64,000 nucleotides of DNA from Dimorphilus gyrociliatus. Lineage: Eukaryota; Animalia; Annelida. Of the stretch, positions 4,027 to 61,783 are shown piece by piece. The translations under genes were made by a program, and so were the position numbers. The notes under the pieces were generated by a model. It was not told the origin of the DNA and made no database searches. It saw nothing but the letters and a program-made list of their open reading frames with translations. Every line of letters begins with the position of its first letter. Position 1 is the stretch's first letter. The DNA is taken from NCBI GenBank assembly GCA_904063045.1, contig CAJFCJ010000068.1, positions 78,453-142,452 on the forward strand. Reading direction: 5' to 3'.

Positions 4027-4189
4027 AATTTCAGGTAAATTCACAGTTTATTTACAATTTTTAAATACATTTTAATTTTTTTGAAATGTACCTTTCCATT
4101 AAGATTTTCAATACTGTTTTAGCTCTTTACAAACACCCTCAAAACCCATGTTCACACACACTCACACACACATACAGGTAATAATTTTC

Positions 4190-5906: not shown

Positions 5907-6914
5907 CTATTCTACAGTAGGTGAAATATGCCTTTTTCTCAATTTCGCTATGTTCTTTAAAGATGTTTTGATTGCTGAATTACTTATAATAGCTATAATT
6001 GGATTATTAATTGCTTGAATGAAAATTGAATAGTTCAGGATATTTCCAAAGTTTTTAAACAATTGATTATTTATGTACTGTGAAGTATAAAAAATGAATG
6101 CAGTATTTAAAAAAACAAACATCATGATGCACAATTGGAAAAGAGTGGCTTTTGATGATTTTGAAAGATTTTTAACATTTTGAGTTTGAGTTTTCATACT
6201 ATCAGTATGTAATTTGGCAATTTTTAAAGTTTTCATATGTAGGATTACAGCTCCAAAAATATAAGGTATATATAATCCACCGTATACAAGAAAATATTCA
6301 GGAGGAAAGCTATAATATCCATTGCAAAATTCTCTATTTCCATATCCCATAAATTCAATATAGAGTGGGAACATACATATTAACAAAGTGATTAGAATGA
6401 TACTTACAAATATCAACAACAATCTTTTTGGGGTAAAATATTTTTGAAATTGAAATGGATATTTAACAAATAAATATCTATATATGAATACAAATAATAA
6501 TAAACATTGAGTATCAGCAAACAAGATTCCATTACTTGAACTTATTAAGATACAAATAACAGGTGAAAAATTTTCAGGATTGGCAGAATTTCCCAAAAGT
6601 CTAAGTATAATAAACCATATTATTGATATTAAATCACATACAGACAATGCAGGTATGAATATTACAACAGTTTCTCTTACAATTTCATAATTAACATATG
6701 TAAAAATGACAAGAAAATTTAAAAATAATGCTATAATAAACAACAAATAGACAATTGCTTTTAGGAGATCATTGTCCCAATTGAGTGATTCATTAATGAG
6801 TAGTGATGGTGATGTTGATAATCTAATAGTTTGATTTAGGTACATCATTTCAACAGACAAAATATCATCATTAAGAATAATTTCAAAACTGAGCATATGA
6901 CAATGTAATATCAA
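5907..6914 (-). CDS. Intronless class A GPCR-like 7TM protein
   Basis: Stop-free ORF with seven hydrophobic stretches: LN in TM1, LSVCDL in TM2, YRY at TM3 end, NNPII in TM7. First ATG at 6848 is the likelier start. Confidence 0.85.
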   Translation of the reverse strand: MILHCHMLSFEIILNDDILSVEMMYLNQTIRLSTSPSLLINESLNWDNDLLKAIVYLLFIIALFLNFLVIFTYVNYEIVRETVVIFIPALSVCDLISIIWFIILRLLGNSANPENFSPVICILISSSNGILFADTQCLLLFVFIYRYLFVKYPFQFQKYFTPKRLLLIFVSIILITLLICMFPLYIEFMGYGNREFCNGYYSFPPEYFLVYGGLYIPYIFGAVILHMKTLKIAKLHTDSMKTQTQNVKNLSKSSKATLFQLCIMMFVFLNTAFIFYTSQYINNQLFKNFGNILNYSIFIQAINNPIIAIISNSAIKTSLKNIAKLRKRHISPTVE

Positions 6915-8049
6915 TATTTGAACTATGTTGGCTTTTTATAGACACAGAAGAAGCAATAATTGATGTTGTATAAATGAAAGATAAACAAGCATCTAAATAT
7001 TTAATGACTAAAGCTTTTAACAAGAATAAACAAAGCTATTTTCTCTTTCTTTAGGAAGATGTGCCAATGAAATGTTACCTGTAATAGGTTAAGATGATAA
7101 TAATAAATTATTCAGGGTTAATACACCAGCAATGTAAATCTGTTTGACAAACATTTTAAATGGTATGTTGATTTGCTTTTAGCAATCCCTATCTCTCAAT
7201 TACTAATAATTTTTGACAGTGGCCATATTTAAATATGGCTTACAAATTAATTTTGTATAGAATCAATTGTTTGTAATTGGAAAATGTATTTCAAAAGTAG
7301 TAAAAAATATTGTTATCATAGAAAGTGTTCACAAGTAAAAAAAAACAACATTCATACACTAAATAAGATTGTTTTAATTTGAGCATTGAAATTTCTTTTG
7401 TAGAATCTTTTTTACTATTATTCCAAATGAAAAAATATCCTTTTTGTCACTTCCTCTGTGATAATTGATGGCACAAATAGAGTTTGGTTGTATGCTGAAA
7501 TATTCTTCTCTTTCCTAGATTTATAGAAAAAAGAATGTAGTAGTTTTTTTGTTTGTTTTTCAAAGAAAACAAACAATTTCTACCTCAAAATAGATTTCAT
7601 CCAATGACAATGATCCATCAAATGATAAAGAACTTTGATGAACAATTGAAATAGTCTTAGAGATATCTTTTATGCACATTAAATAGAATTGATTCAAAAA
7701 GAATTCCCTTTTAAATATTATCTTTGAAAATCTTTTTCTAGGATTCACCATCAATAGATAGCCTTTCAGCTGAGTAGTTACAACATCTAAAACTATAATA
7801 AACTATGTTAATAAGATAGATGTACAAAAAGTTTTCAATCTTTATCTACAATTTTGAGTGCTTAGAGAAAGAGCCGCATTCATTTCCTGTATTCTAACTG
7901 GAGGAAAGGTGGAGGATGGGGAAAGGGGAAGGAATTTAAAAAAAAATAGCAAGTAGTTGAAAAAAAATAGAGTCCACAATTTTTTTTATAGAATTGAGTG
8001 CGAACCTAGCCATTTGCAAAAAAAGTGGACTCTTGAACTTATACTCTTT

Positions 8050-11000
8050 CTATATTAACATGTTATCCTGAAATTTCTGTTTATTTGTCTTATATCTTCT
8101 AAAACTCTCTTCAATACTTGAAATAAAAGGATATGAAATTGAATTTAGTGGAATAATGAGTACAACTATAAATTTGTAGATGTCATCTTTCATTATGAAA
8201 TTAGTAAGCCATGAGAAAATTCCTAAGAAAAAAGAATATATAGAAATTTTTAATTTAAACTAAGAGAAAAAGACTGTTTTGGATATTCTCTCTCTCTTTC
8301 TTTCTCTTCTTTTTCTAGTTCACTTAAAAATTGTATTAGAAGAAAATACAAAATTTGACAATTTTTAAGTAAACTTCTGAGAGTAAATCTCCTTTATTCT
8401 TTCTATTTTACCTAGAATAAAAACTGGTAACCAAACTAAAATACTAAGAAGCATCTGTATTAGAATACTCTTTTTAATTTTTTTCCCAGCATTCTGCTCT
8501 TTTTGCTTGATGGAAACAGTTTTTGAAGATGCTTCTATGTGAAAGAAAATCTTTACATAAAAAAAGATTGTTAAAGTATGAAGCATTGGTTGATAAATTA
8601 TAAAAAATATAAAAGAAAACATCCAGCCTTGACCTCTTAAGCTTCTTATGAAAATTTTCACACAAATAGGAGATTCGCTATGAAATTGCTTTATTTTTGT
8701 TTATTTTAGAAAAGAAAAAAGAAAATTTGTGTACTATTAATCTATGATCAAAATCCAACAGACTAAAATGCCTGTAGAGCAACCCAAATTAGCCCTACCC
8801 TGACCTTTTTCTTTGGTAATTTTACTGACTAACCCCTTGGGTTGTTGTCATTAATCGAAACGTTATGCAAACGTAATGAAACTATAGACAGGCACTTATT
8901 CCGTTCAAATTTGAATATTGTCTTACATGCCCATAATAAAATGGGAATAAAGAAGCCACAATAGAAATGCTCAATGTTAATAATATAAATGATTGTTGAT
9001 AAGAGGAAACCAGGGATTTTTTAAATGGATGAATGATTACAGAGTGTCTTTCAAAAGCAATAAGACACATTGTTGAACTGGATAGCATCATTGCGAAATA
9101 ATATTTAAAACCCAACACCTGACAGAAAAGACTCTGTCGCCAGCCAATATCATTTTCAATGTAATTGTCATTGTAATAAACATCAGCTATTGCTATGGAA
9201 ACGAGATAGAAACAGATGGATAAATCACTTACATTCTCCAACAGTGTAAACTTTTGCTTAACAATAAATTTTGATTTGATGAGGAAATAGATTAGGCTAA
9301 AATTTCCAATTAGGGATATCATTGTGATTAGCCAATGAGCAACTTTCTTAATATATGATCCTATAATTCCGGAACAAATTTTCCATTCTCTACTGGACGT
9401 TCGACAATTGGTCACTTTTCTCTTCGACTGCCAAACAAGGCAACAAATGTACAAATTTTCAACACGAATCATTTCTACATTTACAATAGATCTTATAAAT
9501 TCATTTGTTAATTGAAATGATAGTTTTGTTCCTCTAAAGTCTAATTTTCTCAGTTGTATCTTTTGTGAAAATGCTAAATTTTCAATTTTCTTTACAATAC
9601 AATTTCTTAAAATAAACACTTCCAAGTATTTCAAATCCAACAGATCAATACCGGAAATGATGATTATTTTTGTATTTGAAATGTCAAGGTGTCTTATGAG
9701 ATGACAATTGAGCTTTTTAATGAAAGATAGTGATGTTATTGGATTGAATTGGAGGATTAATGTTTGTAGAATTGATAATTTAATATCCAAAATTGATGCT
9801 CTATCAGTTAATTGTAAATTTACCAATTGCAAATGTACTAAATTTGGAAAATTTAATTGTAAACTGGTAAATTTTACATTGTTTTCAACAATTAAAACAT
9901 TCAATTCAGTTGAATTTTTCAAGAGATTCTTTAACAAATCATCATTACTATTTCCACCGGAAATGGTAATTTTTTTTAAATATTGAGTATTATACATTAA
10001 GGAACTATTGGTGTAATTGTTGGTGTTTTTTGAAGAAAAACTACAGAATAGATAAAAAGTCAGGGTTGTATTGCAATTATCTATTTGAATGTTTGGAAAA
10101 TTGCATAAATATTCATCACTGCCATCTAAACAGTCTATAATTCCATTGCAAACATGCTCTGGATTAAGAAATATCCTTTCATTTTGACATTTAAAAAATC
10201 CTCTCATGTTTAATTTATCTTTTGTTTATAGACAAAAAAGTTTTCTACAGCGGTTGACATTGACATTTTAGTATTTTAAAAAAAAAACACCTACCACAAT
10301 TCACTTCATCATCTCCTTGTCTGCAGTGAGCAACACCATCACATAGCAAATCACTGGCTATATAATAACCTTCTCCAATGCATAGATATTGTTGGACATT
10401 TATGTATATTGCATAGTTTTGTTTGATAGAACATGTCAGTTTTTGGATGGCCCAATGAGGAAAGACTAAAGTAGCAATTTTCACTTTTGTCAATAGGGAT
10501 TTGACGTTTTGATTCGTCATTTCTGTTTTCACAGTCATATTTGTTATCATCGTTGAATCTTTTTGCTATGCAGTATATTCCACAGTTCACTTGGGTTTCA
10601 TTACGACAGTCTGATAAGCAAAGGGTTAGGTTTTGGGGTTAGGGTTAGGGTTAATTTCAGAATTGGACCTGTAGTGTAGTTTTTAACTAATGCTTTAAAA
10701 TGATGACAATATTCATCACTACCATCGAAGCAGTGTTTTTCATTGTCGCATACATTATTCTTATCAATACATTGATTTGTTGTTGAGCACTTTCTATATA
10801 TATGAATAATCAATTAATCAATAAAACTCCCTTAATTTACAATGTTAGCTTTGTCTTTTTACATTCTATTGGCATCAGCTTGACAATCATTTGCAACTGT
10901 TTAGACAGATTGTTTAAAAATTGATTTTAGAGCATAATTCATAAAAAGAACACTTACAACAAGACTCTTCATCTGATTTGTCTGGACAATCAAAAATATT

Positions 11001-17545: not shown

Positions 17546-18231
17546 GGGAACAACAGAAGTCGCCCAGAATTTTTAATAGAAGTCACCCAGAGCTATGACA
17601 GAAGTTGTCCAGAACTGTGATAAAAGTCTCCTAGGACAGTGAGAGAAGTCACCCAGTACTATAGGAGACATAATCTCTTTGTTCTTTTTTTCTATTTAAT
17701 TTCTGACAATTGAAATATGTAAAAAGTATTAATAAATATAGAATGTATAATTTAATAGAAATTAAATAATGTACTTTGTTGTATTGTAATTGTAGGAATT
17801 TCTGCTTCTCCGGAACAGTATTTGTCTTCTTCAATCATTGATCACCTCAGCAAAGTACTGCAAAAATATTGCCAGTTTATCATCCAAAGAATATGTATTG
17901 AGTAAATGAGCTTCTAGTTCTAAACAAGTAAGTTTAAACAACCAGCCAACGGTTAAAGAACTGAACTGCTGAGCTGGAGAAATGTATTTACTTTTATACA
18001 TTTACCAAAGCTTGGGTTCAATTGGTCAAACGATTAAAAAGGTGAGATGCAACAGTCTCATAATCCACAAGAAACAAAGAGAACAAAGACTATTACACTT
18101 AGATCATAATGATAAGGCAAACATGACATGGCCAACATTTGCCGCTGCAGATTAAGTCAAAAGTTCTGGGCAACTTCTATCATAGTCCTGGACAACTTCT
18201 GACACAGCTCTGGGCGACTTCTGTCATATTC
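17546..18231. mobile_element. MULE-like foldback element with AGAAGTCGCCCAG subrepeats, containing an LTR fragment
   Basis: Starts GGGAACAACAGAAGTCGCCCAG, ends CTGGGCGACTTCTGTCATATTC. 9-bp TSD ATAAATTAT/ATAAATTAC (8/9). Homologous to 60827-61783. Confidence 0.85.
17770..18040 (-). mobile_element. LTR fragment (family 2) nested in the foldback element
   Basis: TGTACTTTGTTGTATTGTAATTGTAGGAATTTCTG...AAGAATATGTATTGAGTAAATGAGCTTCTAGTTCTAAACAAG shared with 32021 and 45496 copies. Confidence 0.8.
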
Positions 18232-19067
18232 ATAAATTACTACAAATTAAAATATATTTACATCTACATGTTTAAAATTTTTTAAAAGGAATATTCACTT
18301 TAAAATGATTGTCTTGTTTAGAGCATTACCACTCTATCATCAATTTTTGAAATTCTTCTCAAATATTGATAAAAAAAGCTATAGTTTGTTACAAAATAAT
18401 ACATAGATTGATTAACAAACAATTCTAGACCTCTTCCTCTTCTAATGATCCTATTGGAATTGAAAGTGGAATTATTCCAGATTTGGCAGGTGAAATGTAA
18501 AACATCAAATATTTCAATAGAAATGTTTGAATGAATACAGATATATTTTATATCATTAGAATCATCTTTTAATATCCTTTTACCTTGTTTATATATGTCA
18601 AGGTGGTTCCTTTAAAATTTTATGAAAAAGTGACAGGAAATAGATAACCTGGCAAACCTTGGAGTTTTTTTTTGGAGAATTAAAAAAAGCAAATTATGAG
18701 GCCTTACTTTAGTACTGAACATTAATATTTATTGAGTGTTACAGATGATAGCTTTCAAAGAATATCACCAAAAAGAGCCTTCAAAATAAAATATTTAATC
18801 AATCATATATATATAATACAAAAAAAGTACTATTCATCCAAATCTAGGATTTAACTTTTCAAATTTTAAATTGAATTTACTCTTTTGATAAAATCTTCTT
18901 CTTCACCTGAGATCAGCCTATAAAATCCTCTACAAAATCAAAACACAGCCAGTCAAGTTAGAAAATATATATAGAGAGAGAGCCATTCATTTTCTGAAAT
19001 CTTTTCAATCATTTCCTTTATATTTCTTTACACAGCCAAGAGCCTATTCAATGTATAGAGTTATATA

Positions 19068-20395
19068 TTAGGTACGAATGAAAAGTTTCAGTCACTGTGT
19101 GTTTTTTGTTAGAAATATTTGATGAATGTGGTTAATTTTTGTGTATGTTAAAGCCTAAAGTATATGCTACAAATATTGATAATTTAATTTTTCAATAGTC
19201 CCCTCCTTTTTCTATACAAGCCTGCCATTTGCTAGGAAGTAGAGTGATGCCGTTCCAGTAAAACAAGGTTGGCTTTCTCCTCAGAAAATCTTTGACATCT
19301 GTCTTCAATTCCTCCAAATTGTCATAATGGGATCCTCTGATATGGTCCTTCAATCTCCCAAAAAGAGAATAGTCAGAGGGAGCCAAATCAGGACTGTAGG
19401 CTGGGTGAGGGCATAATGACCACCCTTGATCTCTTATGAAATCTGTTGTGTAGAGACTTGTATGTGGTCTTGCATTATCATGCTGTAGTATCATTTGTTT
19501 TCCAGGTCTAATTCTATGCAACCTCTTCCTTAGTCTCTTTAGGGTCTCAACATATTGTATTGAGTTGACTACTTCTCCATACTCCATGAATTCAATGTGG
19601 ACTAAACCAGAATAGTCCCAAAAAACTGAGCACATCAGTTTTTCTGCTGACTTGGCCATTCTAAGCTTCTTGTCAGGTGGAGATGATGTGTGTTTATAAG
19701 TCAAAGAAGACCTTTTAGATTGTGGATCATAGAGGTGTACCCAGGTTTCATCTCCAGTCACAATTTTTTCTAAAAAGTCTCTTCCTTCTGCTGTGTATCT
19801 TTCAAGTAGCTCCATACAATGACTCACCCTCACCTGCTTCTGGTCCAGATTGAGAGCATAAGGAATCCATTTTGCACAGATCTTTCTGTATCCTAGCTCC
19901 TTTATAATTTTCCCTACAGTCTGTTGACAAATTTCTATTTGTTGGGCGATTGCTCTCTGAGAAATGGTCCGATCTTCTCTGATAAGCCTGTCAATTTCTT
20001 CTCTATTCTGACCTGTTACAGCTGTGCTTGGACGACCAGATCTTGGCAAATCTTCAAAATTTTTTCTTCCTTTTTTTATGTCAGATACCCACCTCCTTAT
20101 TGAACTTTCACTCAGAGTTTCATCCCCACAAAAGCTTTTTAACCGCTTATAAATTTGTCTCGCAGACACCTTCTCATGCACTAAAAATGCTATGACTGGT
20201 AGTTGATCAGAATGTGTGCACATGACTTGCAGTTGCTTATACCAAAATAAATTTGTAATGCCTCAACAGAATCGAATGAAAGTTTGCACAGTGAAAGTTT
20301 ACTAATTTCCTAAGATTATTGGAAAGTATCAATGATATTAGTTAAGCCATTTTAAAATTACAGCACAGTGACTGAAACTTTTCATTCGTACCTAA
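19068..20395 (-). mobile_element. Full-length mariner transposon
   Basis: Perfect 32-bp TIRs TTAGGTACGAATGAAAAGTTTCAGTCACTGTG; TA TSDs at 19066-67 and 20396-97; 1328 bp. Confidence 0.97.
19192..20223 (-). CDS. Intact mariner transposase, DD34D
   Basis: 343 aa; HTH region with RSGRP; WIPY (WVPHEL-equivalent); TGDETW, HDNARPH, YSPDLAPSDY; 34 residues between second and third Asp. Confidence 0.97.
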   Translation of the reverse strand: MCTHSDQLPVIAFLVHEKVSARQIYKRLKSFCGDETLSESSIRRWVSDIKKGRKNFEDLPRSGRPSTAVTGQNREEIDRLIREDRTISQRAIAQQIEICQQTVGKIIKELGYRKICAKWIPYALNLDQKQVRVSHCMELLERYTAEGRDFLEKIVTGDETWVHLYDPQSKRSSLTYKHTSSPPDKKLRMAKSAEKLMCSVFWDYSGLVHIEFMEYGEVVNSIQYVETLKRLRKRLHRIRPGKQMILQHDNARPHTSLYTTDFIRDQGWSLCPHPAYSPDLAPSDYSLFGRLKDHIRGSHYDNLEELKTDVKDFLRRKPTLFYWNGITLLPSKWQACIEKGGDY

Positions 20396-28019: not shown

Positions 28020-28435
28020 CGTATCTAAATTCTGATGAAAGTCAAATAAATTTCACCAAAGGTTTAGGAAATCAGAATGTTTTACGGGATGTCAGAGTTA
28101 ATTTTTGTGTAGTTTAATTGGACTGTCACAAGCTCATCCAAACGGAGTTGAGACAGTTCACTCTGGAACAGTTCAAGCCTTTTGACATCAAGCTACAGGT
28201 GCATATAACTTCAGGTTCACCTTACTGTTTTAGTCAAATGGTCCTCTTTTCAACTGACTCTTTCCTTCAAAGATCATTTGGAAACAACCTCTCTGGAACA
28301 AGTCTTGCACACTTCAACATTGGCTGGTAGCTTGGCAACCTACTATTACCCACAATCTACTCTGCTATTGAACTTTCATATTGTTACTTGCTTAAGTATT
28401 CTATTTCAAATAAACCATTTAAATTAAACACTTAC
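28020..28435 (+). mobile_element. Diverged LTR remnant related to the LTR at 50624
   Basis: ATCATTTGGAAACAACCTC...TTGGCAACCTACTATTAC...CTACTCTGCTATTGAACTTTCATATTGTTACTTGCTTAAGTATT...AATAAACCATTT aligns with 51015-51180. Left boundary approximate. Confidence 0.8.
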
Positions 28436-47204: not shown

Positions 47205-50200
47205 ATGGAAATTGCAAAGAATTTGTTTGTAATTTTATGGATTTCATTCCAACTATTTTTTGAGACAAAAAATACTTATCTTTCTGGTGATATTTACTTA
47301 AATCTCACTAAAAGGCATTCCTATAAAGTTAAAGGAATTTTAATGGCAAAATTGTCAAATGACACTACAAATTATTACATAAGATATAAACAATGATCTA
47401 CCAGCTTTTCCAGAGAAATATGCAAAACATTAGGATACAATGATTTCCATTCAACTGCACTCATTCAAGATATATCTGAAGGGAATAGATTCCTCATCTT
47501 GTATGATAGAGAAGCTGTTTGTTGTATATTGTAAGTATTAAAAGAAGAGGATTTTCTTTCTTTATTTCAAATTCAAATTCAAATAGCACTTTGTTTCTTG
47601 ATGGAAAACAAACAAAGACAAAAAATTCTGCTGTAGTTTTATCTTGCTTTTTAAAAAATGAGTCATCATGTAAGAGAGAGAGTAAACATTAAATTTTCCA
47701 TAAAAATTATGGTCCTTTCCCTTTGTTATCTAGTTTTGTTTTTTCATACATTTTCAAAGGGAAATAACTTTTTAACTACAAAATTAAACAATATTTTTTA
47801 TCATTTTCAGATCTATTTTCTTTGAAAATTGAACAAAGTAAATTTGTTGTATTTTTAAGAAAAAGTATGGAAAATTTTCTTGTTCAAGGAAATTTTCAAT
47901 ACAAAAATAATCTATGTAAATCAACTGAATTCTATTACATTAAACAAATTGAATATAACTGAAAAGTTGGTGTTTGTGTTAATGTGTTGAACAATGGAAA
48001 TTATTCAATAGAAGAAGAATTGATAGATCTCAACAAGAAACTTGAATGTTCTTTTATAGAATTGAAAGGTAAATACTTTTTTTTTTAAATTAGAGAAAAA
48101 AAGACTGTTCAAATAATTTTTTCTTTCTAAAAGATTTGGAATTAAATATTTACAATTCAAAGAGTTCATGGTTATTATTAAAAAAAAAGTACTATAGGAT
48201 CATATAAAGTAAATGTAACACATTATCTAAAATCCAAAACTATTAGAATCTTTGTACCATTTTTTATGGCAACTATTGAAAAAAAACTTGCTTGTTCATA
48301 CCTATGTTCACTTTTAAACAAGACAATAGAAACTGAAATATGTAGAGATTCCTAATATGATTTTGCAGTTAAATTCTTTCAACTATTTTCTTCATTTCTT
48401 ATATTTTACAATAAATATTTTCCTTTATTTTTCCATGTTTTTTTACCAGGAAGGACAACCAGTTTTTAAAAATTATTTTCAGTTGATGGAATTTTAAAAG
48501 ATGATATTCAATTTTTCACAATAAAAAACTCCAATAAAATGTCTACTTTTGAAGGAATTCTAAAAGCAAGGATATTGAAAGATAATTCTGAATTTTTTGT
48601 CAGATATAACCTCGACATTCCAATTATAACATTAAACTCAATTTGCAAAAAATTAGGCTATAAATCTCTTCATTCTTTACATTTCCCATGGAAAATATCT
48701 AAAAAGATGGCTGCTAATAATTCTAGTTTTGTACAAATTCTATACAATTTGAATTTTTCCTGTTATATGTAAATTTTTTGAGATCATTAAGAGAGGAAAT
48801 ATCACTGCCCATACTAACAGTTTCTATTGTTTTATCAGTAAAATATACAGGTACGGATGAAAGCGAGTGCAGTTGGTTTTCTGTTTTTTTACAATGCATA
48901 ATGAACATATTTACAACAACCTTTTATTGCAATAGATCATCTTGCCCTTATGGACAATATCTGTGCCAAAGGGAAAAATATTGCATTTCTATTAAACAAA
49001 TACGTGATGGAATAAGTGATTGTTGCCTTGGTGATGACAAATCAGTCTATTGTCAAAGCAGAAGTGATGAAATTCTTTGTTCATTACAAACAATTGGGGA
49101 GGTGCCCAAGGTGGACAGTTGAAAATTTTAAATATTTAAAAAATATCAAAATTAAAGGTTCAATGCCAAAAAAATTTCTACAATCCTCTTTAGACTTAAT
49201 GATTTTGAGTATTGAAGATGTTCAGTACAATTTTCACTTTTCATCCAATCTTTTTCTGAATTTGATTCATTTAAATCTCTTGAACATAACAACCAAGAGT
49301 CTAGTGAACAATTTAAAATTCAACTCCTCCATGAAGCTATTACAATATCTGGACATTTCTAAAAATCCAATCATTAGCTTATCATTCCTCTCCTCTCACT
49401 TCAATTGTACAAATTTAAGATATTTGGATATTTCATCAACAAGCATCACTTTTTTGAAAAAATTCGATTTTAAATTATTACATGTCTTTTGGTGTTTTGG
49501 AATTACTGGCTTCCTGGGTAACACATTTGTCATTTTCTGGAACTTTGTTCTTGTAAAAGACTATAGGCTTTACCACCTACTCTTACTATTTAGTGACATT
49601 TTAACCTCTTTCTACGTATTATTCATTGGGATAGCAGACGCCTATTTTTCAACATCCTATTTGGAGAAGGACGAAAATTGGAGAAATGGTCCCTTCAGCC
49701 AATTCTTAGGAGCGAATATGATATTTTTGCTAATCCTCTCCTCATTTAGCACAATACTACTAACGTTGGAGTTAATCCATTTTCAAAGTCAATATATGAC
49801 AAACACACCTACAAATTTATATTCCCTTCAATAATATTCAGTTTAATCATTTCAAACATTCCATTTATTTATGATAAAAGAATACACAATTCAACACCAA
49901 TATGTTTCTATATACATATTAGAAAGGAACAGGGTCATTTCTGGATAATATCATTCATCCTTTTTGGAATAATAACACCGTTATTTAGCTTTATAATTGG
50001 ATTTTTATATATAAATATTATAAGAACTTTGTCAAAATTTAGTAAAGCTTTCGAAAAAAATACAGGTAAAAGGACTGTAAAGAAAAGCATCATAATTATA
50101 ACAATTTCGAATATTTCAACCTGGACAATATTTTCAATATTAGGTTATTCTTTCATTTTCTCGCTTATAGGGCAGTGTAGATAAACAGGAAAATACCATT

Positions 50201-50399: not shown

Positions 50400-50623
50400 G
50401 CAAGAATTGTTGCAATCACTCATTTCCTCCCTCTATACCACCATTGAACTCTCCTTTCAATCAGAGATTTTTTACTTGTAAAAGTGAGAAATGATACTCT
50501 TGACCGAGGTATTTCACCTTCTATACAACTTTACTTTTTTTTCTCTAATAAAAATCTATCTTCTCCAGTTTCTGACTTTTATAAAAGTTTATAAAGAGGT
50601 ATTTTTCATTTATAGAAATATTC

Positions 50624-51258
50624 TGTACAACTTTGGTTATATTTTACATGCTTGAACTCTATTATTTTATGCAACATATACATGTACATCTTAAAACCTA
50701 CGCAAGAAAATGCTATAACATTGGCCAAACATAAGTCTGATTAGTCAGCTTGAAGGCTCATCTTTAATTACCAATAAAGGTTTGGCCAGGTTATAATTTA
50801 ATTAACTTGCCTAGGGTGTGGCCAAGTTATAATTCAATTAACCTTCCTAAATGTTGAACCTTGTAACATCCTGTTACTAAAGATAAATATGAACTACACA
50901 TTTCGGCAACTGTAAAGTGATGATTGGATGTCAGAGACAAACCTCAAAGTATATAAATTCTCATTATTCTCATTTGGCATGCAGCTTCCATCTGGACCCA
51001 AGGACCTGGGAAAATCATCTGGAAACAACCTCCACTGGAACCATCCATCTACTCCTCAACATTGGAAGACAGTTTGGTAATTTGGCAACCTGCTATTACA
51101 AACTATCTACTCTGCTATTGAACTCTCATATTGTTACTTGCTTAAGTATTATTATTGCGAATAAACCATTTTAATTTAAACATTTGTTTAAAGGTTCGAG
51201 TAGAACCAGTATTGTTATAACTTGCAAACGCATAGATTTTGCCAGCAAGAGCAGTACA
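50624..51258 (+). repeat. 5' LTR
   Basis: TGTAC...GTACA termini; TATATAAA near 50950; AATAAA near 51160. Differs from the 3' LTR at 4 positions (50757, 50789, 50904, 50959), all transitions. Confidence 0.97.
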
Positions 51259-51262
51259 AATT

Positions 51263-51280
51263 TGGCGCAGTCGACAGGAT
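51263..51280 (+). promoter_or_regulatory. Primer-binding site, tRNA-Ser type
   Basis: TGGCGCAGTCGACAGGAT, 4 nt after the LTR; complementary to ...AUCCUGUCGACUGCG-CCA, the 3' end pattern of eukaryotic tRNA-Ser(AGA). Confidence 0.85.
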
Positions 51281-51318: not shown

Positions 51319-52430
51319 ATGGCAGAAGGAGGAAATGGAAACGCCACTGGGGCAGTTACAGACTCTAACCCTTCAACCCAGCAACTCCAACAATTACAAT
51401 TCAGCCAGCAGGAATGTCAGAAAGGCAACAAAGACTAATTGAAGACTATGATAGATTGGTGAGTGAAATGAAAAGAAATCGAATCACAATTCCAACAGAT
51501 CATGGAGATGGAACACATCACCCAGCACAGAACCCAAATGTTGATATCACAACAGTAATTCAAGCATTAAGGGCTGCTTGGGACCGCCCTCAAAGAACTA
51601 TTCTCAAGTTGTATGATGGAAGCAAGGAGTGTTCAAAATTCAAAGAAGACTTTAATCAGGCATGTTATGCTTATGGTTGGATAGGAGAAGATGTTGTGAA
51701 AGCAAATCTTTTAGATTATTTAACTGGTCCTGCAAAGGATTTGGTGTTGGCTCTGGATGGAGAGCCTACTGTGGAGGAAATATGGAAAGCCCTCCATGAC
51801 GAATTTGATCTAGATCCTTTGGAGTATCAGGAGAAATTGCTTAACTTAAAGCAAATGAATGGCGAAAGTGTGGTTCAGTTTGTTAATAGAGCAAAGAAAT
51901 TGATAAAGAGGTTTTCTCCACCTAGACCAATGGAACCACAATTGCTTGCAACTATGAAGAAATAAAACTGATGGAAAGTTTTACAAAGAGGATTACAACA
52001 GGATATTCTACATTTAGTGTACACCTTACATCCTAAATGTCAAACATTGGCAGAACTATATGAGGCTGCTAAGCAAGCAGAAACTTCATTAAAACTAACT
52101 CAAAGAAAACCGATCACAATGGTGTCAAAATTGGAAACTCAACAAAGAAAAGAGACCAAAAAGACCCAGGTAATCAGAAAAGATGCTTCTACAGAAACCC
52201 CAAATTTCTGGAATAGAAAGCATGTACCTGACAACAAAAATGCTACTAAAGAAAAGTTTTCAAGCCAAAAAGTCCAAAGTATGCACCAACTACAACAAAT
52301 AGGTATTATAAGAAAAATCAACCAGCAAAGACGATACTGAAAGAGGAACCTAAGCTACAAAAATTAGAAACATTAGACAATGAAAGCATGTCAGAAAACG
52401 ACGAAGTCAAGATATTCTCTGTTTTTCAGA
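51319..52430 (+). pseudogene. gag: gag, frameshifted
   Basis: LKLYDGSKECSKF...YGW...LLDYLTGPAKDL; FTRGL..D...V....CQTLAELYEAA. Frameshifts near 51405, 51950, 52320. Confidence 0.85.
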
Positions 52431-55400
52431 TAGTGACGAATCCACTTGTCAGCTGTTACAAAGCAAACAATCTGAGCGAAATGCTTCAACATTTATTGGA
52501 CAATTTGAAACTAATACTGGTTTTAAGTTTGATGCCTTGATAGACTCTGGTAGTGACAGATCTTTCATTTCAAAAAAGGTATTAAGACAAGTTCAAGGAA
52601 AAGCATCCTTCCCAGAACAAACTGTGAAAAATGCTAGAGATGCTTCAGGAAATAGCATCGAGATATGTGGAGAAATCATTCTCAGACTTTATTTTAATGA
52701 AAAGATTATTACAACNTATTGGGTGTGACTTTCTACAACAAAATGGAGCTACCTTGACTTTGGCAGAGACAGATTATACTCCAGCAGGTACAGAAAAGAA
52801 TTACCCTGTTGGAACACACTTATCTTTCAAAGGGTTTTACCCAGTTCCTCTTATTATGAAAAAGAATGAGAGTCAAATACATACCCTTCAGACAACAATT
52901 GAACAAGAAAATCCCGAGATGAAGAACAAAGTTACCCAAATTCTGGCAAAATATAAAGAAACTATTGCAGAAGACAGATTTGATATTGGCAATCCAGAGG
53001 TACCACCCTTGGAAATAACTCTTGAACCAGGTTCAACACCATATAGACAAGGCCATATAGAATGCCTCCTCAAAAACAAGAAGAATGTAAGCAACAGATA
53101 GCTGAATTGGTAAAAAGCAAAGTTATTCAACCAAGCAAGAGCAATTGGGCTTCACCAATTGTTTTCGTAAGAAAGAAGGAAGGTAGTCTACGAATGTGTG
53201 TAGATTATAGAAAACTAAACAAAATGACAGTTAAAAACAAGTATCCACTGCCAAATCAAGATGATCTTTTTGACCATTTGGGAGGAGGAAATAAATTCTT
53301 TTCTACAATGGATTTGACAAGTGCATACCACCACATTAACATCAAGAAAGAAGATAGGTCTAAAACAGCATTTATTACACCTTTTGGCTTGTTTGAATTT
53401 ATTAAGATGCCTTTTGGATTAACCAATGCCCTCCTCATTTTAGTTATGTAATGAATTCATTTGTGCTAAAGGATGTAAAGCATTTGTGCCTAAACTACCT
53501 TGATGACATAATAATATTTACCAAGTCGCTGGACCAACATTGGGAAGCATTGGAGACCATTCTTCAACAGATTCAAAAGTACAATTTTAAGATTAAACTA
53601 AGTAAATGTGTGTTTTTGAAAGAACAAGTTCAATTCTTGGGACACATTGTATCAGAAAAGGGGATTGAAACAGATAAGTCCAAGACAGATAAATTATATA
53701 ATTTACAGCCACCAGTGTTTGCAAATTCACTACTAAGCTTTGTTGCATTTTGTGGCTATTACAGAAAATTTATACAAGATTTTGCAAGAGTAGCTAAACC
53801 TCTGTATATGTTAATGAAATACATGGGAAAAAGGATAAATTGCAATGGACTGAGGAAGCCAAGCAATCATTTTTCAAGTTGAGAGATGCAGTAGTTAACC
53901 CTCCTGTATTACAACTACCTGATTTTGCTAAAGATTTTCACTTAACAACAGATGCATCGAATGTAGCTGTAGGAGGAGTTCTTGAACAAGTTTATGTAGA
54001 TGAGAATGGGAAGAAAACAATGAAACCCATTGCCTACGCTTCAAAACAATTCAACAATAATCAAATGAAATATGCAGCCTATCAAAAGGAAGCATTTGGG
54101 TTTACTGGGTTGTAAAGAAATTTTTACATTACCTTCAAGACAAGCCATTCTTTTTATATACTGACCATCAGAGTCTAGTACAACATTTAAGCAAAACAAA
54201 TTGAATGTCAGCACAGCAAAATGGGTCATGGCTTTAATGGATTTAAAATTTACAATTAACTATGTGACAGGACGAAAAAATAGAGCAGATGCATTAACAA
54301 GATTAGAAGAATATACACCCCAAGGAAAGTAACATTTGAAGAGCTAATTCATGGAAAGATCAAAAAGGAGAATTCTCCCTCTATTTCAGTTAAAATGGAA
54401 CAGTATGAACATACACCAGAGTTAACTTTTGTAGCTACCAGTGATAACAGTGAAGAGAAAATTGATTTGTCTTCTGTTGACTTACAGTCAGAGCAAGAAA
54501 AAGATGTGAATTTAAAATCAATTAAAGAATATTTAACATTGGATGGTCAGCTACCTATTCCTTATTTTGGAACTTTTACACCTTTCATAATGGAGATGTT
54601 TGTTCACAAGGAAATGATCTGGATTATCCTTGAAGAAAGAAACATTCTGGTTTTACCTGACCATTTGATGCTAACTCTGCTCCCTAAATTCCATAAAAAT
54701 AAAATTCACAATCACCATGGACCCAGAATGACATTACAAATAATTACAAAGACCTTTTGGCACCCAAAATTAAAGATTATGATTGAGAATTCAATAAAGG
54801 ATTGCACTTTGTGTGAACAAATGAATGGTAGGAGTAGAGTATACCTTTGGTAGAAACCTTTCACCCTGCATCACCAATGGAGTTGGTAGCCATGGATATA
54901 ATGGGACCCTTACCCATGGTTAAGTCATACAGATTCATACTTGTGATAGTGGATCATTTCAGTAGATACACAGTTTTATATGCACTCAAACAGCAAACCA
55001 GTAAAGAAATTGCAAACCTTCTTTTCAACAGATTTTTTCCCATTTTTGGAATTCCAAAACAAATGTTGACAGATCAAGGAAGAAACTTTGTTGGTAAAGC
55101 TTTTAAAGAGTTTATGAAGGTATTAGGTATTGAGAAAATCCAAACAACAGCTTATAGAAGCCAGAGCAATGGACTAGTTGAACGAAGAAATAGAGAAGTG
55201 AGGAAGGAAATCAATAAATTAGTGGTGGAAGAAAATCAGCATAACTGGGTTGCAAACCTACCCTTGATTCAAGCATTTTTGAATCAATCACCTGTAGGAA
55301 GTACAGACTACCACCCCAGGAACTTCTTTTTGGCACCAGCACAAGAACACTGGATTGATGTAACAATGCCATACTACCTCTCCTGAAACAAATGTACTAT

Positions 55401-55720
55401 TTGTATTCAATCACCAGCAGCAATTAGTACAGTTAAGAGCTACAGCCTTCTGTAAATCCATCATGGCAAAAGAACAATATAGGGAAAGAAAGAATAGAAA
55501 TCTCAATCTTCCAAAATATTTTGAGGTTGATGATGAAGTATTCTTAAGAAAATGATGCTGCAAGAATTGCAATAACAAAAATCCCTTCTTTAAAATGGTT
55601 AGGCCCATACCGAATAACAAAAGTCAATCATCAAAAGTGGATATATGAAATACAAATGGATGATATACATGCAAGTTGGTACATGGTAGCAGATTAAGAC
55701 TAGCCAATGAATCTAATAAG
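52430..55720 (+). pseudogene. pol: pol (protease, RT, RNase H, integrase), multiply frameshifted
   Basis: ALIDSG; SPIVFVRKK..LRMCVDYRKLN; MPFGLTNA; YLDD; LTTDASNVAVGGVL; HHCC; MDIMGP, TDQGRNF, SNGLVER (DD35E); WLGPY...VHGSRL. Mostly single-base indels; one N at ~52716. Confidence 0.95.
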
Positions 55721-55819
55721 TTGGAAACAGGGAAAGAAGCAACAACAATCTTTCACCTTGTGGAGAAGGAAATAACACACCTCCAATATCTTTCTCAGGT
55801 AGAAGGAAGAAATGACTTC

Positions 55820-56150
55820 CAATTCCGTTTGAAGAATCAAAAAGGCCAAGAAGTCATTGCCTTGTGTGACACAGGAGCATTGAGATCCTTTATTACTGAA
55901 AAAGAAATCAAGTTAATGGATTTACAATTATGGATAAAGAAACAATTGGCTTACCAATTATAACTTCAGCTGATGGGAAAGCTTTAAAGCAAAAAGGAAG
56001 CGTAAAGCTGAATATCCAATTTGCTGGAGAAAGTATGGAACAGAATTTATAGTTATGGAAAATCTAGACATAGCAATAATACTTGGTTGTGATTTCCTAC
56101 AAACTGTGGGAGCAAACCTCAATTTTGAAGCTAAACAGTGTTCTCTCAAA
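55820..56150 (+). pseudogene. Second retropepsin-like aspartic protease domain (PR2) downstream of integrase
   Basis: VIALCDTGALRSFI (DTG at 55868-55876)...SADGKAL..KGSVKL...ILGCDFLQTVGANLNF. Two 1-nt frameshifts (~55920, ~56030). Confidence 0.88.
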
Positions 56151-59100
56151 TTTGATAGAAGGAAAGGGAACCTGGCTGAAAGAATAAGGCAACCTCAACT
56201 AAACAAAGTCACTATAGCCATGATGGGACAGCATGACTCTTCATCAGAAAGTTCAGATAGTGATGACTCAGAGATGGAAGTTACTAATTCTGATACTGGT
56301 TATGACACAAGCAATACTTTCAAAACAGACAGTAATTACAGTCTCAATGAACCTTCAAGCTCATCTGAAAGTGATGACACAGAAACAAATAATGAACTGG
56401 ATCAAAATACAGATTCAGAGGCAAACATTATCTCTGATAGAGAAGATGAAATATCTAGTTCAGACGATGAGTCAATAATTATTGAAAGCGAAATTATTGA
56501 TATAACCCATTCGGATAATGAGTCAATAATTATTGAAGGTGAAATTATTGACATAACCCATTCAGATAATGAGTCCCTCATAGTGGTAGATTCATCCCAA
56601 GATGAGAAAGAAAATACAAGTGACACAGACAATGAGTCAGTCATATTTTTAGATGAGACTAAAATCATCTCTGAACCAATTAGATTCCCAACAAGAAGTG
56701 GAACCACAATATATAGAGTTAGAAGATGGAATAACTATCAGAGTGGACAACAACACAAAATTTTCAACCATTCAACTATAGCCAACACAGGAAGAGCTAA
56801 CATGAAACAGATGTTGTGGCTTCCACTAGTGATGACTGTAATGGTGATCTGTGGCTGCATCCACTCAATAACAGTCCCAAAACCATCCTACCAAGGTGCC
56901 CATGTTACAAGTGCAAACATTACCTTAACATTTAAACCACCGTTATACTTTTGTTCTAACCAACTACCAAGCCAGGCATTTGATCTAGCAGATGAGCCAA
57001 CTTGTAATATAGAATCACAAGAAACCAAGACAATTACAGCTGATATCTATGAATTGAACTTGGAAGAAATTGAAACAAGAGCAGTAAAATGTCAAGTGTA
57101 TCTAAGAACTAATTTTTACACTTACTATTTCTTTGGAGCAAAGAAGAGGAGGATTGTTAACTCAGTTATCAAAGTAACTCATGATCAATGCAGACAGATG
57201 ATAAAAGACAAACGATCTTTTCAAGGAAAACCTTTAATGGTGAAAAGAAACACTTGGATCCACCAAGATCAGTTTCCTGCTGCCTACACATGGCCAACAA
57301 CGACCAAGGTGCTGGAATACACCACAATTATCCAGTTTGGCAAAGCATATTGGCAACCTCCTAATATGAAAATTACAACTAATCTGGACTACCTGGAAGA
57401 TTGTTTACCAGGGCAGTCCTATTGTGAAACAGAAGAGGCAATTATTGTCTTTAGGAACCTCAAGAATAATTACACACTTGGGCAACAATCACCATGGATA
57501 AAAATTAGCAACAGAATTAGTTGTATCAAATTTGCTGGTCACTATTCTTGTCCAGGGTATTCTATTCTGGACATCCCTTATCAAGATAAGTTTATTGATG
57601 GAATTGGTGGTCCTGGAACAAAAGTACTAGTACCACTGGAGGAACAGAGTTTAATACAGGAAACAAGCAAGGAACACCTATACAATTTGCTACAATATCA
57701 GAAGATTGGCAAGAATGAAGAAAAACGACTATTAAACTATCCCAATAAAGTTAAAGAACAAATTATACTATACAAGCGAAACAACCCCTTACCAAGTCTT
57801 AACCAATGGTACAGAGAAACAAACACAAAGTATAAACTAATGAGAAATAAAGGCACACTCAAGGAAGTTGTGATATATCATCTACAACAACCCATTAGTC
57901 CATCTTACTGGGAGCTGGATAACTATTATATCCAAGAAATGCTGCAAGCAGTCAATTGGACAAGGGCAACAAGACAATCTGTCACGATTTCAAAATATGT
58001 ATACAGTGAGAAAAGAATCAAAAAGAAGGTATTACCAACATTGGGCATATGGTATAAAGGACCACCAGCCAGAGAATTCAAGATTACCTATGAAGGAATT
58101 TATTTTACTCTACACATGAGAATGGCTAAAAAGCAGATGAAGAAGGAAGCAAAACTGAAACATAAGATAAGTAAAAACCCATACCACAAATTCCCATTGG
58201 AAATGAGAGAAGCTGCCCAAACATCTACCTTACTACATGGTATTGATTCAAATTTTAAGAATTTAAAAAAGTTTACCCAACAGCTGTCAAGTCTTCTCTG
58301 CAATCAATTTGTTCAAAGAAGCAGAATGATGGCATTACTAGCAAATTTGGATCCTCAATTGACCACAGTGTTAACAAATGAGTTGGGAATGCACAGTAGT
58401 CAGATGGGAGAATTAGCTATAATTAAACAATGTTCACCAATAGCCTCAACAGAAGTAGTTTGTGACTTAAGCATGATAAAAAAGAATAACAAATGTTCTC
58501 AATTTTTACTTGTCACCATGAACAACCTGCTTTTCCAAGTAGAACCAGTTACTCATGTTTTACAGCAAGTCAATCCTGAAGAGATTACCTATAATGAGTG
58601 TAAGTCTAACAAGTTATTCTACAAAACAACTCACAACCCATTAAATCCTATAAGAAACCAACCAATGAAAGACAAAACGTATGTGTATTATTCAGAAAGA
58701 GGATGCAGATTTCACACTGTGTCTGCAAAATCCATGCAGTTACATATCCACAATCACCTTTCTGAACCAAAAATTGAAATTGCCAGATTAGCTGATCTAC
58801 TCCACCATGGGGTAAAGAAGGATATTGCATACCAGCACTCAAAAATTAAGCAAGTTATCAGTTCACTGGAACAGAAGCAGGCAAGGTATGATAACATGGT
58901 CACTGTTGCAGAGAAAAATGGCATTGTACCCAATTTATCTGGACTTAAACAGTTTTTCCATAGTTGGTACTATAAACCTGGGAAAACACTTTATGTTATC
59001 ATACGAAATATTTGTTTGAGTATTGTAGTGTCAATGGTATGTATCATCATTTTCAACTATATTATTGGAAGAAGAAAACAAAGAGAAGAAATTGCTACCC

Positions 59101-59222
59101 CAAGTGAGAGCACAGATAACTCTCCTGAAAACCCAAAACTAATGAAACAAAGTTGTAGCTTTAGTCAACATCAAACTAATGAAGAAGAACAACCACCTGT
59201 AATTCTCATTAAATCAAGATGA
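56055..59222 (+). CDS. env: Uninterrupted 1055-codon ORF: PR2 C-terminus, acidic linker, class III-like envelope glycoprotein (ATG plus signal peptide at 56802)
   Basis: Signal-like MKQMLWLPLVMTVMVICGCIHS. AVKC...YYFFG.K...DQC (rhabdovirus G fusion-domain pattern). LC...LANLDP.....LG......GELAIIKQC (gB/chuvirus-G pattern). C-terminal TM ICLSIVVSMVCIIIFNYII and cytoplasmic tail. Confidence 0.85.
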   Translation: MENLDIAIILGCDFLQTVGANLNFEAKQCSLKFDRRKGNLAERIRQPQLNKVTIAMMGQHDSSSESSDSDDSEMEVTNSDTGYDTSNTFKTDSNYSLNEPSSSSESDDTETNNELDQNTDSEANIISDREDEISSSDDESIIIESEIIDITHSDNESIIIEGEIIDITHSDNESLIVVDSSQDEKENTSDTDNESVIFLDETKIISEPIRFPTRSGTTIYRVRRWNNYQSGQQHKIFNHSTIANTGRANMKQMLWLPLVMTVMVICGCIHSITVPKPSYQGAHVTSANITLTFKPPLYFCSNQLPSQAFDLADEPTCNIESQETKTITADIYELNLEEIETRAVKCQVYLRTNFYTYYFFGAKKRRIVNSVIKVTHDQCRQMIKDKRSFQGKPLMVKRNTWIHQDQFPAAYTWPTTTKVLEYTTIIQFGKAYWQPPNMKITTNLDYLEDCLPGQSYCETEEAIIVFRNLKNNYTLGQQSPWIKISNRISCIKFAGHYSCPGYSILDIPYQDKFIDGIGGPGTKVLVPLEEQSLIQETSKEHLYNLLQYQKIGKNEEKRLLNYPNKVKEQIILYKRNNPLPSLNQWYRETNTKYKLMRNKGTLKEVVIYHLQQPISPSYWELDNYYIQEMLQAVNWTRATRQSVTISKYVYSEKRIKKKVLPTLGIWYKGPPAREFKITYEGIYFTLHMRMAKKQMKKEAKLKHKISKNPYHKFPLEMREAAQTSTLLHGIDSNFKNLKKFTQQLSSLLCNQFVQRSRMMALLANLDPQLTTVLTNELGMHSSQMGELAIIKQCSPIASTEVVCDLSMIKKNNKCSQFLLVTMNNLLFQVEPVTHVLQQVNPEEITYNECKSNKLFYKTTHNPLNPIRNQPMKDKTYVYYSERGCRFHTVSAKSMQLHIHNHLSEPKIEIARLADLLHHGVKKDIAYQHSKIKQVISSLEQKQARYDNMVTVAEKNGIVPNLSGLKQFFHSWYYKPGKTLYVIIRNICLSIVVSMVCIIIFNYIIGRRKQREEIATPSESTDNSPENPKLMKQSCSFSQHQTNEEEQPPVILIKSR

Positions 59223-59238
59223 AGGGACTCATCTTCAC

Positions 59239-59252
59239 AAAGAAGGGGGAAG
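59239..59252 (+). promoter_or_regulatory. Polypurine tract
   Basis: AAAGAAGGGGGAAG immediately before the 3' LTR. Confidence 0.9.
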
Positions 59253-59253
59253 T

Positions 59254-59888
59254 TGTACAACTTTGGTTATATTTTACATGCTTGAACTCTATTATTTTAT
59301 GCAACATATACATGTACATCTTAAAACCTACGCAAGAAAATGCTATAACATTGGCCAAACATAAGTCTGATTAGTCAGCTTGAAGGTTCATCTTTAATTA
59401 CCAATAAAGGTTTGGCCAAGTTATAATTTAATTAACTTGCCTAGGGTGTGGCCAAGTTATAATTCAATTAACCTTCCTAAATGTTGAACCTTGTAACATC
59501 CTGTTACTAAAGATAAATATGAACTACACATTTTGGCAACTGTAAAGTGATGATTGGATGTCAGAGACAAACCTCAAAGTATATAAATCCTCATTATTCT
59601 CATTTGGCATGCAGCTTCCATCTGGACCCAAGGACCTGGGAAAATCATCTGGAAACAACCTCCACTGGAACCATCCATCTACTCCTCAACATTGGAAGAC
59701 AGTTTGGTAATTTGGCAACCTGCTATTACAAACTATCTACTCTGCTATTGAACTCTCATATTGTTACTTGCTTAAGTATTATTATTGCGAATAAACCATT
59801 TTAATTTAAACATTTGTTTAAAGGTTCGAGTAGAACCAGTATTGTTATAACTTGCAAACGCATAGATTTTGCCAGCAAGAGCAGTACA
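59254..59888 (+). repeat. 3' LTR
   Basis: 635-bp direct repeat of 50624-51258; 631/635 identical, no indels seen. Confidence 0.97.
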
Positions 59889-60826
59889 ATAATATATTAA
59901 TATCATTGTTTGCTTATATTCACTGTGTATTCACTGTGCCCTAGAAAATAAGTAGGTCAAGTTAAGTAGGTCATTCAGGAATTTGTGTAAATTAAACAGT
60001 AAAATAAAAAGTAAATGAAGATAATAGGATGGTTATATCTCTTTCGAATATGTAAAGGATTATATATTAATTTGTGCAAGTGTAGGATGTTAATTTTTCC
60101 CAATTGAAGTAATTTAATAATATATTAAGGTATTGAAATACTATTCTTAATGTTAAAATTTTCGATAATATTTCTCAACTTTAACATACAGTTTTTCATA
60201 AATGGCATGTTTAATTTATTTGAAAATTGGAAACATATTGACAGTTGAACTTTTCAGCAATTAGCTCCTAACTAAATATTAATTTTCTTTTTTTGTTTTC
60301 AATAATATGGAGTCTTTGATAGTTAAAGTTAAGTAGTATAATGCAGTTTCTACAACAATTGCTAATAAGCTTAAGAATTTTAGGTTAGGTCCAAAAGTAT
60401 TTGAACTCAATGCTTGTATTTTTCTTTTCCATGTAAAAATATTTTTTTCAAGTCATGTGACCTAATTTGTTATCGAGGCTTGTGCCATATTATTGGAAAT
60501 TCTATGGCGATTATTTTTTTAAAAAATGAGCAAAACCTGTCCAGTAGTTTAGGAGAAAACTTACAAAACAGTTTTAAGTGGAAAAGTAGAATATTACTAT
60601 TGTTTTGTCTAATTTTCTAATTATCCCAGATGAAAAGTAGGTGATGTTAAGTAGGTCATTCATGAATTTGCAGCAAGTAAATAGCTATATTTGTTTTGAA
60701 TTGTATGGAGGAGTCTTGGATGATTAAAGTTCAACAGCACTATGCAGTTTTCATAAGAATTGAGAATAGCATTGATGATTTTGATGAAACAGATGCATTT
60801 ATCCTGTATATAAGATTATGTGAAAA

Positions 60827-61783
60827 GGGAACAACAGAAGTCGCCCAGGGCAGAAGTCGCCCAGGACAGAAGTCGCCCAGAAATTGATAGAAGTCGCCCA
60901 GAGCTGTGACAGAAGTCGCCCAGAACTGTGATAGAAGTCGCCCAGGACTATGACAGAAGTCGCCTAGAACTGTAGAAGACATAATGTGTTTGTTCTTTGT
61001 TTCTATTGATTTCTGACAATTGAAATATATAATAAGTATTAATAAATATAGAATGCATCATTTAATAATAACTAAATAGTGAATGAATTAAATAATAAAA
61101 TACTGGCATTCTGTTGAAGGTTTCACATAAATATCATTTATTTGCTTAAACTTGTGCACAAACTTGAGGTTCTATTTGGATCAGTACAGCAGAAAATTCC
61201 CACAATCACAATACAAAGTACAGTATTGAGTTTTAAACTAAAAATCTTATGCATTTCATTTAATTTATTAAATTTGTTTCTACATTCAAAGCAGAATTTT
61301 GCCATGTTCATCAATTTCTTTCAAATACCTCTTATGTCAAAGATCATGAGAATTAAAAAAAAATTGTAAGATATATACATGATTTTAAAGAGACTAATAT
61401 TTTTATCAAAACAATTGTTACTTTTGAAGGATTACAATGCAGAAAATCACTTAATTCGAATAGCTAACAATTCAATTTTCACAACAAATCAAGTGGTAAA
61501 ACATTACTCTACAAAAAAAACTGGTAAAACAATTTCTTTCATTATCACTCAGAGATTACAAATAATAAATACAAACTACTTCATAAATTATTTTCATATA
61601 TTTTGCATTTTATTAAGCATACTGTAAACTTCTAGTACACTTCTGGGCGACTTCTGTCATAGTCCTGGGTGACTTCTATCACACTTCTGGGCGACTTCTG
61701 TCACAGCTCTGGGCGACTTCTATCAATGTCTGGGCGACTTCTGTCCTGGGCGACTTCTGCCCTGGGCGACTTCTGTCGTATTC
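60827..61783. mobile_element. MULE-like foldback element with tandem AGAAGTCGCCCAG units in both arms
   Basis: About 7 units in each inverted arm; perfect 9-bp TSD ATGTGAAAA (60818-26, 61784-92); 957 bp; no coding capacity. Confidence 0.92.

Follow-up and report, generated by a model that had tools for sequence, protein, structure and literature searches.

Retroelements are usually drawn with one protease, and a long terminal repeat (LTR) element of the annelid Dimorphilus gyrociliatus raises the question of what a second one, placed between integrase (IN) and envelope (Env), would do there. The element lies in a 64,000-nt stretch of contig CAJFCJ010000068.1 (positions 78,453 to 142,452, forward strand; hereafter the window, in whose own coordinates positions are given), where it spans 9.3 kb between LTRs at 50624-51258 and 59254-59888. 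One protease, PR1, precedes the reverse transcriptase (RT); the other, PR2, stands between the integrase tail and a predicted class III envelope. Our leading but tentative answer is that PR2, likely in one frame with both neighbours, is a dedicated cutter that would release Pol, at its integrase end, from a tail tethered to the membrane. Direct observation covers how the domains are ordered, that the catalytic motifs are intact, and that a signal-like stretch and a transmembrane helix are present.

PR2 was compared with a retropepsin profile of 97 positions, for which 47 proteases from integrase homologues were used. Three separate pieces of the window matched profile positions 10-32, 45-71 and 67-94, in that order. 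Read with X at its breaks, PR2 scored 34.1 bits (single-comparison E 1e-12), and none of 1000 shuffled versions exceeded 4.6 bits. The D-T-G triad and the ILGCD (hydrophobic-G-x-D) motif were both intact, and coverage extended over positions 10-95 of 97. With a single PR2 piece, Pfam gave matches below its cut-off only (E 0.035-0.08); searches of the PDB and Pfam with PR2 pieces returned nothing useful, and the first half of PR2 had no relative in word-index protein searches, a weak negative. Judged from these profile matches, PR2 is a real second retropepsin domain and not a chance resemblance, in agreement with the earlier note on this DNA. That note had also described a complete retropepsin downstream of the integrase, into which the integrase tail continues without a stop. 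No stop was found from VHGSRLRL to LCDTGALRSFI (one frame, 55664-55960), but WLGPY sits in a different frame and PR2 itself occupies three frames, switching near 55920 and again near 56045; the statement is therefore true only across frame changes. The ILGCDFL half is, as described there, in frame with an acidic tract of ~150 residues (56247-56690), a signal-like stretch (56820-56876), a transmembrane stretch (59010-59066) and a stop codon at 59220-59222. The parts of the element are as follows.

50624-51258, plus strand: 5' LTR, 635 nt with TG...CA ends; 4 substitutions and 0 gaps against the 3' LTR.
51263-51274, plus strand: primer-binding site (PBS), identical over 12 nt to that given for Dgyr_errantivirus_1.
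51319-52400, plus strand: gag, in several frames in the window; PNMA match at E 9e-4, under the cut-off.
51459, plus strand: GTGAGT splice-donor-like site inside gag.
52500-52790, plus strand: PR1, a canonical retropepsin upstream of RT; D-S-G at 52543, interrupted by N near 52716.
53050-54250, plus strand: RT and RNase H (RH), in several frames; RVT_1 and RT_RNaseH above the Pfam cut-off.
54650-55710, plus strand: integrase (H2C2, core and GPY/SH3-like tail, WLGPY ... VHGSRLRL), in several frames.
55782-55798, plus strand: splice-acceptor-like site, a candidate only, 23 codons upstream of the PR2 catalytic Asp.
55799-56140, plus strand: PR2, the second retropepsin; D-T-G at 55868, ILGCDFL near 56079-56099, three frames in the window.
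56226-56800, plus strand: acidic Ser/Asp/Glu linker including a short tandem repeat.
56802-56873, plus strand: internal stretch resembling a signal peptide, by hydropathy only; an ATG of its own lies at 56802.
56874-59009, plus strand: class III (gB / rhabdovirus G-like) envelope ectodomain, assigned by profile, Pfam and Foldseek.
59010-59222, plus strand: transmembrane helix (59010-59066), cytoplasmic tail and stop (59220-59222).
59239-59252, plus strand: polypurine tract, seen in the sequence before the 3' LTR.
59254-59888, plus strand: 3' LTR, which pairs with the 5' LTR.

The element thus has the features of Ty3/Gypsy (Metaviridae), namely two TG...CA LTRs, a PBS, a polypurine tract and the domain order PR-RT-RH-IN. 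An integrase-tail profile matched the piece 55548-55694 at E 1e-5. The named integrase matches listed were mostly Gypsy, and in an RT-RH-IN tree for placement within Metaviridae the element had a long branch, the tree being of low resolution and having no outgroup. In this copy the flanks of the outer LTR ends held no direct repeat of 4-6 nt that could be a target-site duplication. The LTRs are 99.4% identical, yet the duplication is missing (50612-50623, 59889-59900), and a recombinant or mis-joined copy is possible. A 76-nt piece at 28325-28400, 91% identical to the LTR, probably derives from a related subfamily, as a remnant or a solo LTR.

To test the frame breaks of the window, contigs from four runs (two studies) were aligned to the element; such contigs show the majority path only, and the runs may include the window's own source. 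Twelve of the 44 length differences from the window could be placed, each common to all four runs. The 5.5-kb X1 contig differed from the window by 22 gaps and 2 substitutions, and the X3 contig had no substituted letter between 55056 and 57427. Because gaps far outnumber substitutions and the placed differences are common to the four runs, the frame breaks look like assembly or sequencing errors rather than decay. A single frame from the integrase core to env requires nine gaps, that is, frame changes near 55310, 55350-55370 (two), 55550, 55680, 55920 and 56045, together with two gaps that cancel each other where the linker ends; protein motifs were the basis for four of the nine places. Across this region the X2 and X3 contigs had nine gaps each, the number required, and the length differences in each add up to the frame offset of the integrase core against env. 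In X5 the sum also fits the integrase core against the first half of PR2, provided that X5 shares the remaining gaps of X2 and X3. The cancelling pair lies at ~56680-56750, where the window and the runs' contigs read the linker differently. For one junction there is independent support, since the paralogous protein P0137 (DgyrCDS14462) is unbroken at one PR2 position where the window changes frame. Taken together, these results suggest that integrase, PR2 and env are likely in one reading frame.

The same contigs bear on whether PR2 is part of a second element, nested or in tandem. A recombinant copy might explain why the outer LTR ends lack a target-site duplication, but no RT, LTR or repeat was found around PR2, and single contigs in the four runs cross the integrase, the start of PR2 and beyond with no joint to other sequence. 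We consider this explanation hardly credible, and the nested insertion that the earlier note had named as grounds for refutation is itself largely refuted by this continuity. The X5 contigs skip 59-66 nt at 55896-55954, 58575-58633 and 59507-59572, and on the minus strand each skip runs from GT to AG; the first reads GTAAG ... pyrimidine tract-CAG. The pattern looks like spliced antisense transcripts of the element. The 59-nt skip within PR2 had been considered as a deletion counting against PR2 and was dropped, since its ends read as a minus-strand intron.

The membrane protein behind PR2 was examined next to its relatives. Thirteen proteins matched the last open reading frame (ORF; env), and a profile (A1) that combined the window Env with 12 relatives matched Epstein-Barr virus gB at E 4e-4 and rhabdovirus-type glycoprotein chains at E 5e-3 to 1e-2. 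One relative, P0133, exceeded the Pfam cut-off for Rhabdo_glycop_FD. With an Env model of mean predicted local distance difference test (pLDDT) 49, all PDB matches listed by Foldseek were herpes gB (best E 1e-7, template-modelling (TM) scores ~0.2), and those in BFVD were nyami-, chu-, rhabdo- and herpesvirus glycoproteins with low TM-scores; the single-sequence model had a pLDDT of 33. These results support, at the domain level, the proposed class III (gB / rhabdovirus G-like) fusion protein, with putative fusion activity. Word-index protein searches gave no relative for the env region (a weak negative), and window env pieces searched directly against the PDB and Pfam gave nothing useful. In scans of DNA collections, nothing was found for RT, env and P0058 (an integrase homologue, see below) in viral contigs or for env in metagenomes, and the IN query gave one 19-residue match; the matches in the ESM Atlas were all under 0.9 and serve as leads only.

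How PR2 might free the integrase can be pictured from this arrangement. The long protein would be directed to the endoplasmic reticulum by its internal signal, and host signal peptidase would free the N-terminus of Env, whereas the upstream part would be retained on the cytosolic face, held by the signal. Retropepsins act as dimers; copies of PR2 crowded on the membrane could thus dimerise and would cut beside the integrase tail and within the acidic linker, and the entry of Pol into particles would then no longer have to wait for PR1. Signal peptidase likely frees Env, given the signal-like stretch that Env itself carries, and release of Env by the protease, a role that had been suggested along with release of the integrase end, is for the same reason the less likely of the two.

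We then asked whether the layout occurs elsewhere. A protease after the integrase was found in one of 120 integrase homologues, P0058, whose DNA, L002, is a metagenome Gypsy contig. A single open frame in L002, at least 2368 codons long, contains PR1, RT, RH, IN, PR2, a degenerate third protease-like stretch that lacks the Asp, ankyrins, a signal-like stretch and a membrane protein. Both motifs are intact in its PR2, and the spacing from GPY to Asp is ~87 codons, against ~89 in the window element. Like the window element, L002 reads PR1-RT-RH-IN-PR2 ... signal peptide ... transmembrane helix in one frame; its integrase is only 37% identical to that of the window, and its cargo is ankyrin repeats and a fibronectin-like surface protein (a lead), not a fusogen as predicted for the window. 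In an RT-RH-IN tree of low resolution (thinned to 14 of 57 usable homologues) the L002 protein was not sister to the window element. The PR2 layout of L002 is thus likely of independent origin. In both elements PR2 lies, by predicted topology, on the cytosolic side of the internal signal, and a fused layout would need a route to free Pol from its anchor at the place where PR2 sits. Still more guardedly than for the window alone, we consider it possible that these are examples of a recurring two-protease Gypsy design, in which a second active retropepsin was placed more than once at the junction of integrase and membrane protein, as a switch for release or maturation that the membrane would trigger, with a possible second role, in the window element, as leader of an Env precursor made by splicing. 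In L002 the polyprotein (3-7109), in which two retropepsins are intact and one is degenerate, is followed by an ORF without assignment (7268-8743) and a DEDDy-type exonuclease ORF (RNase_T; 9043-10374). In L004, a related locus, an integrase-signal peptide-membrane protein frame (2-1804) is followed by a RING-finger ORF (2055-3392) and a 717-codon ORF without a Pfam match (3723-5876).

The rarity of the layout fits another reading, that PR2 is a passenger from a captured or recombined block, or from an old duplication of PR1, with no needed work or an optional one only. Among 83 loci, 65 had an integrase and 45 had at least 1 kb behind it, and a protease stood there only in L002, the same element as the single case among the 120 homologues. 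L004 manages without PR2, and the third protease-like stretch of L002 has lost its Asp, so such copies decay. Both motifs are nevertheless intact in the PR2 of the window and of L002. In addition, P0137 starts with a paralogue of the second half of PR2, in one frame (24/40 and 37/64 residues identical to two window pieces) and without likeness to the first piece of PR1; its identity of ~59% is near the 62% between the window Env and its closest relative, P0130, which may or may not belong to the same subfamily as P0137. We regard a mere passenger as unlikely. P0137, P0138 and P0140 are named host gene models with element-like pieces, two of the three joined to unrelated domains (TIR in P0137), and are probably chimeric annotations.

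Where PR2 came from was addressed by comparison with PR1, the sequence of which carries 13 X that lower its scores. The two proteases share 26 of 74 residues, and their DNA score was 129, compared with at most 121 in 300 shuffles and at most 107 in 52 other slices. The internal duplication proposed earlier fits a tree of 32 of 66 rows, where PR1 and PR2 were sisters at 93/70, but not a larger tree of 47 of 99 rows, where they were not sisters. PR2 was the best pairwise match of PR1 among 98 other proteases (75 against 68 for the next), and PR1 ranked third among the matches of PR2, two foreign proteases scoring higher; in L002, PR2 was not close to PR1 (score 55). An old duplication of PR1 is a plausible origin of PR2, as far as these comparisons go. 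The same likeness, together with the fact that both proteases would share one chain, could suggest that PR2 regulates PR1 through mixed or competing dimers and so times maturation, instead of cutting itself. An inhibitor, however, needs no intact Asp, and PR1 is only third among the matches of PR2, which makes such regulation improbable.

The sequence before PR2 raised a further possibility, that PR2 is the leader of an Env precursor made from a spliced message, as a short Gag piece-PR2-linker-signal-Env, which could exist alongside the long frame. The amount of PR2 would in that case match that of Env, and the enzyme would work at the membrane, with Gag, Pol or the Env tail as examples of what it might act on. 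The sole plus-strand GT[AG]AG between the 5' LTR and 53087 is the GTGAGT in early gag (51459), and 8 kb contain 13 strong acceptor-like sites, one of which stops 23 codons short of the PR2 Asp, at the domain edge; a join of the two would be in frame. Env is spliced from inside gag within the idefix subclade, according to passages of PMC12992720. The match is post hoc, though: a given stretch of 60 nt would hold an acceptor with a probability of ~0.09, to be multiplied by 1/3 for frame. No gag-PR2 join was present among the 15 of 35 run-contig joints listed. No equally strong acceptor was found just before the signal peptide by a scan that may be too crude. A spliced leader, the chief alternative, is in our estimate somewhat unlikely, and release of integrase from the membrane-tethered tail is the reading that we carry forward.

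The element is almost surely a known one, Dingle, also named Annelida_Polychaeta_Dgyr_errantivirus_1. Both are Ty3/Gypsy elements with a gB-like env and the identical 12-nt PBS; the LTRs of Dgyr_errantivirus_1 are 631 and 636 nt (635 nt in the window), and its LTR-to-LTR spacing is 8679 (8630 in the window), a gap that the length differences in the run contigs narrow to no more than a few bases. Named proteins of Dimorphilus gyrociliatus were among the closest matches to the window element, and P0140 (DgyrCDS14789) contains a stretch nearly identical, by eye, to the window Pol. PMC7854359 names the family Dingle and reports its gB-like env, and PMC13524379 lists Dgyr_errantivirus_1 with an HSV/gB-type env and 7 copies (supplementary file 1), gives it the label GAG-POL, env being kept separate, and describes the integrase tail as a chromodomain. 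A second protease in Dingle is unnamed in the texts and searched supplements of both, the domain map (Extended Data Fig. 3d), which may show PR2, being outside this scope; each main text uses the word 'protease' a single time, and not of a second domain. Fusions of Pol and Env have precedents. Supplementary file 4 of PMC13524379 labels three other errantiviruses GAG-POL-ENV and one POL-ENV, and passages on the Atlas belpaovirus (PMC9094657) and on Burro/GYPSM1 (PMC6431247) place env in frame within the polyprotein. The Env of Atlas is class II, unlike the class III of the window, and env in Burro lies between gag and pol, unlike that of the window, which follows the integrase. The rule that env is normally a separate ORF thus holds for Drosophila errantiviruses but not for Atlas, Burro and several of the labelled errantiviruses. 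Passages of PMC12440569, PMC12992720 and PMC5408684 name no second protease; a search for literature on a second or additional protease in LTR elements gave no relevant paper, most subscription papers and figures lying outside it, and no retrovirus or LTR element with two working retropepsins was found in the literature searched. The suggestion that the layout is undescribed therefore needs narrowing: the family, its env type and Pol-Env fusion are known, and the second protease, with an independent example, appears to be undescribed within the literature covered.

Several points weigh against PR2 as a dedicated cutter in one long frame. The single Pol-PR2-Env frame that had been predicted has indirect backing, from the gap bookkeeping and P0137, but no intact copy was seen, and continuity comes from gap counts with 32 of the 44 length differences unplaced. 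Env carries its own ATG at 56802, and the label given to the family's reference copy in the PMC13524379 supplement keeps env apart from GAG-POL. PR1 could perform the same cut, and the passages on Atlas (PMC9094657) and Burro (PMC6431247), with their polyprotein env, name no second protease. The P0137 piece excludes the catalytic half, so that the Asp of the paralogue is unseen. Finally, L004, which is 65% identical to P0058 in the integrase region, joins the integrase to a signal peptide and membrane protein without PR2; PR2 is thus not required for such a fusion, and with L002 the only one of 65 loci to have it, the design recurs but is rare and optional.

Elsewhere in the window, LDLa-LRR-G-protein-coupled receptor (GPCR)-like ORFs were noted by eye at 376-1401, 8882-10225 and 49016-50184, and other GPCR-like ORFs, also by eye, at 2902-4026 and 5907-6935. 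A Mariner-like transposase ORF lies at 19192-20262. A repeated element with 22-nt tandem units occurs at 17573-18248, 60840-61012 and 61617-61725, one copy being ~1 kb downstream of the 3' LTR.

If PR2 acts as we propose, a second protease at the integrase-envelope junction, as in these two distant elements, would show how an element absorbs a membrane protein and yet releases its enzymes, a step toward infectivity still to be explained in the many elements of invertebrates whose env is fused. Should PR2 be a mere passenger, what is left is a corrected annotation for a known family. The host is a laboratory annelid with a young, multi-copy family, so the reading is testable by observation. Comparable solutions exist in RNA viruses. 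Flavivirus NS2B-3, which acts on capsid, and the alphavirus capsid autoprotease are likewise cytosolic proteases upstream of an internal signal and a glycoprotein, and the flavivirus capsid is freed from its anchor in like manner. Those enzymes are serine proteases of RNA viruses, whereas PR2 would be a dimer-dependent aspartic protease of a retroelement, whose role at the membrane we infer.

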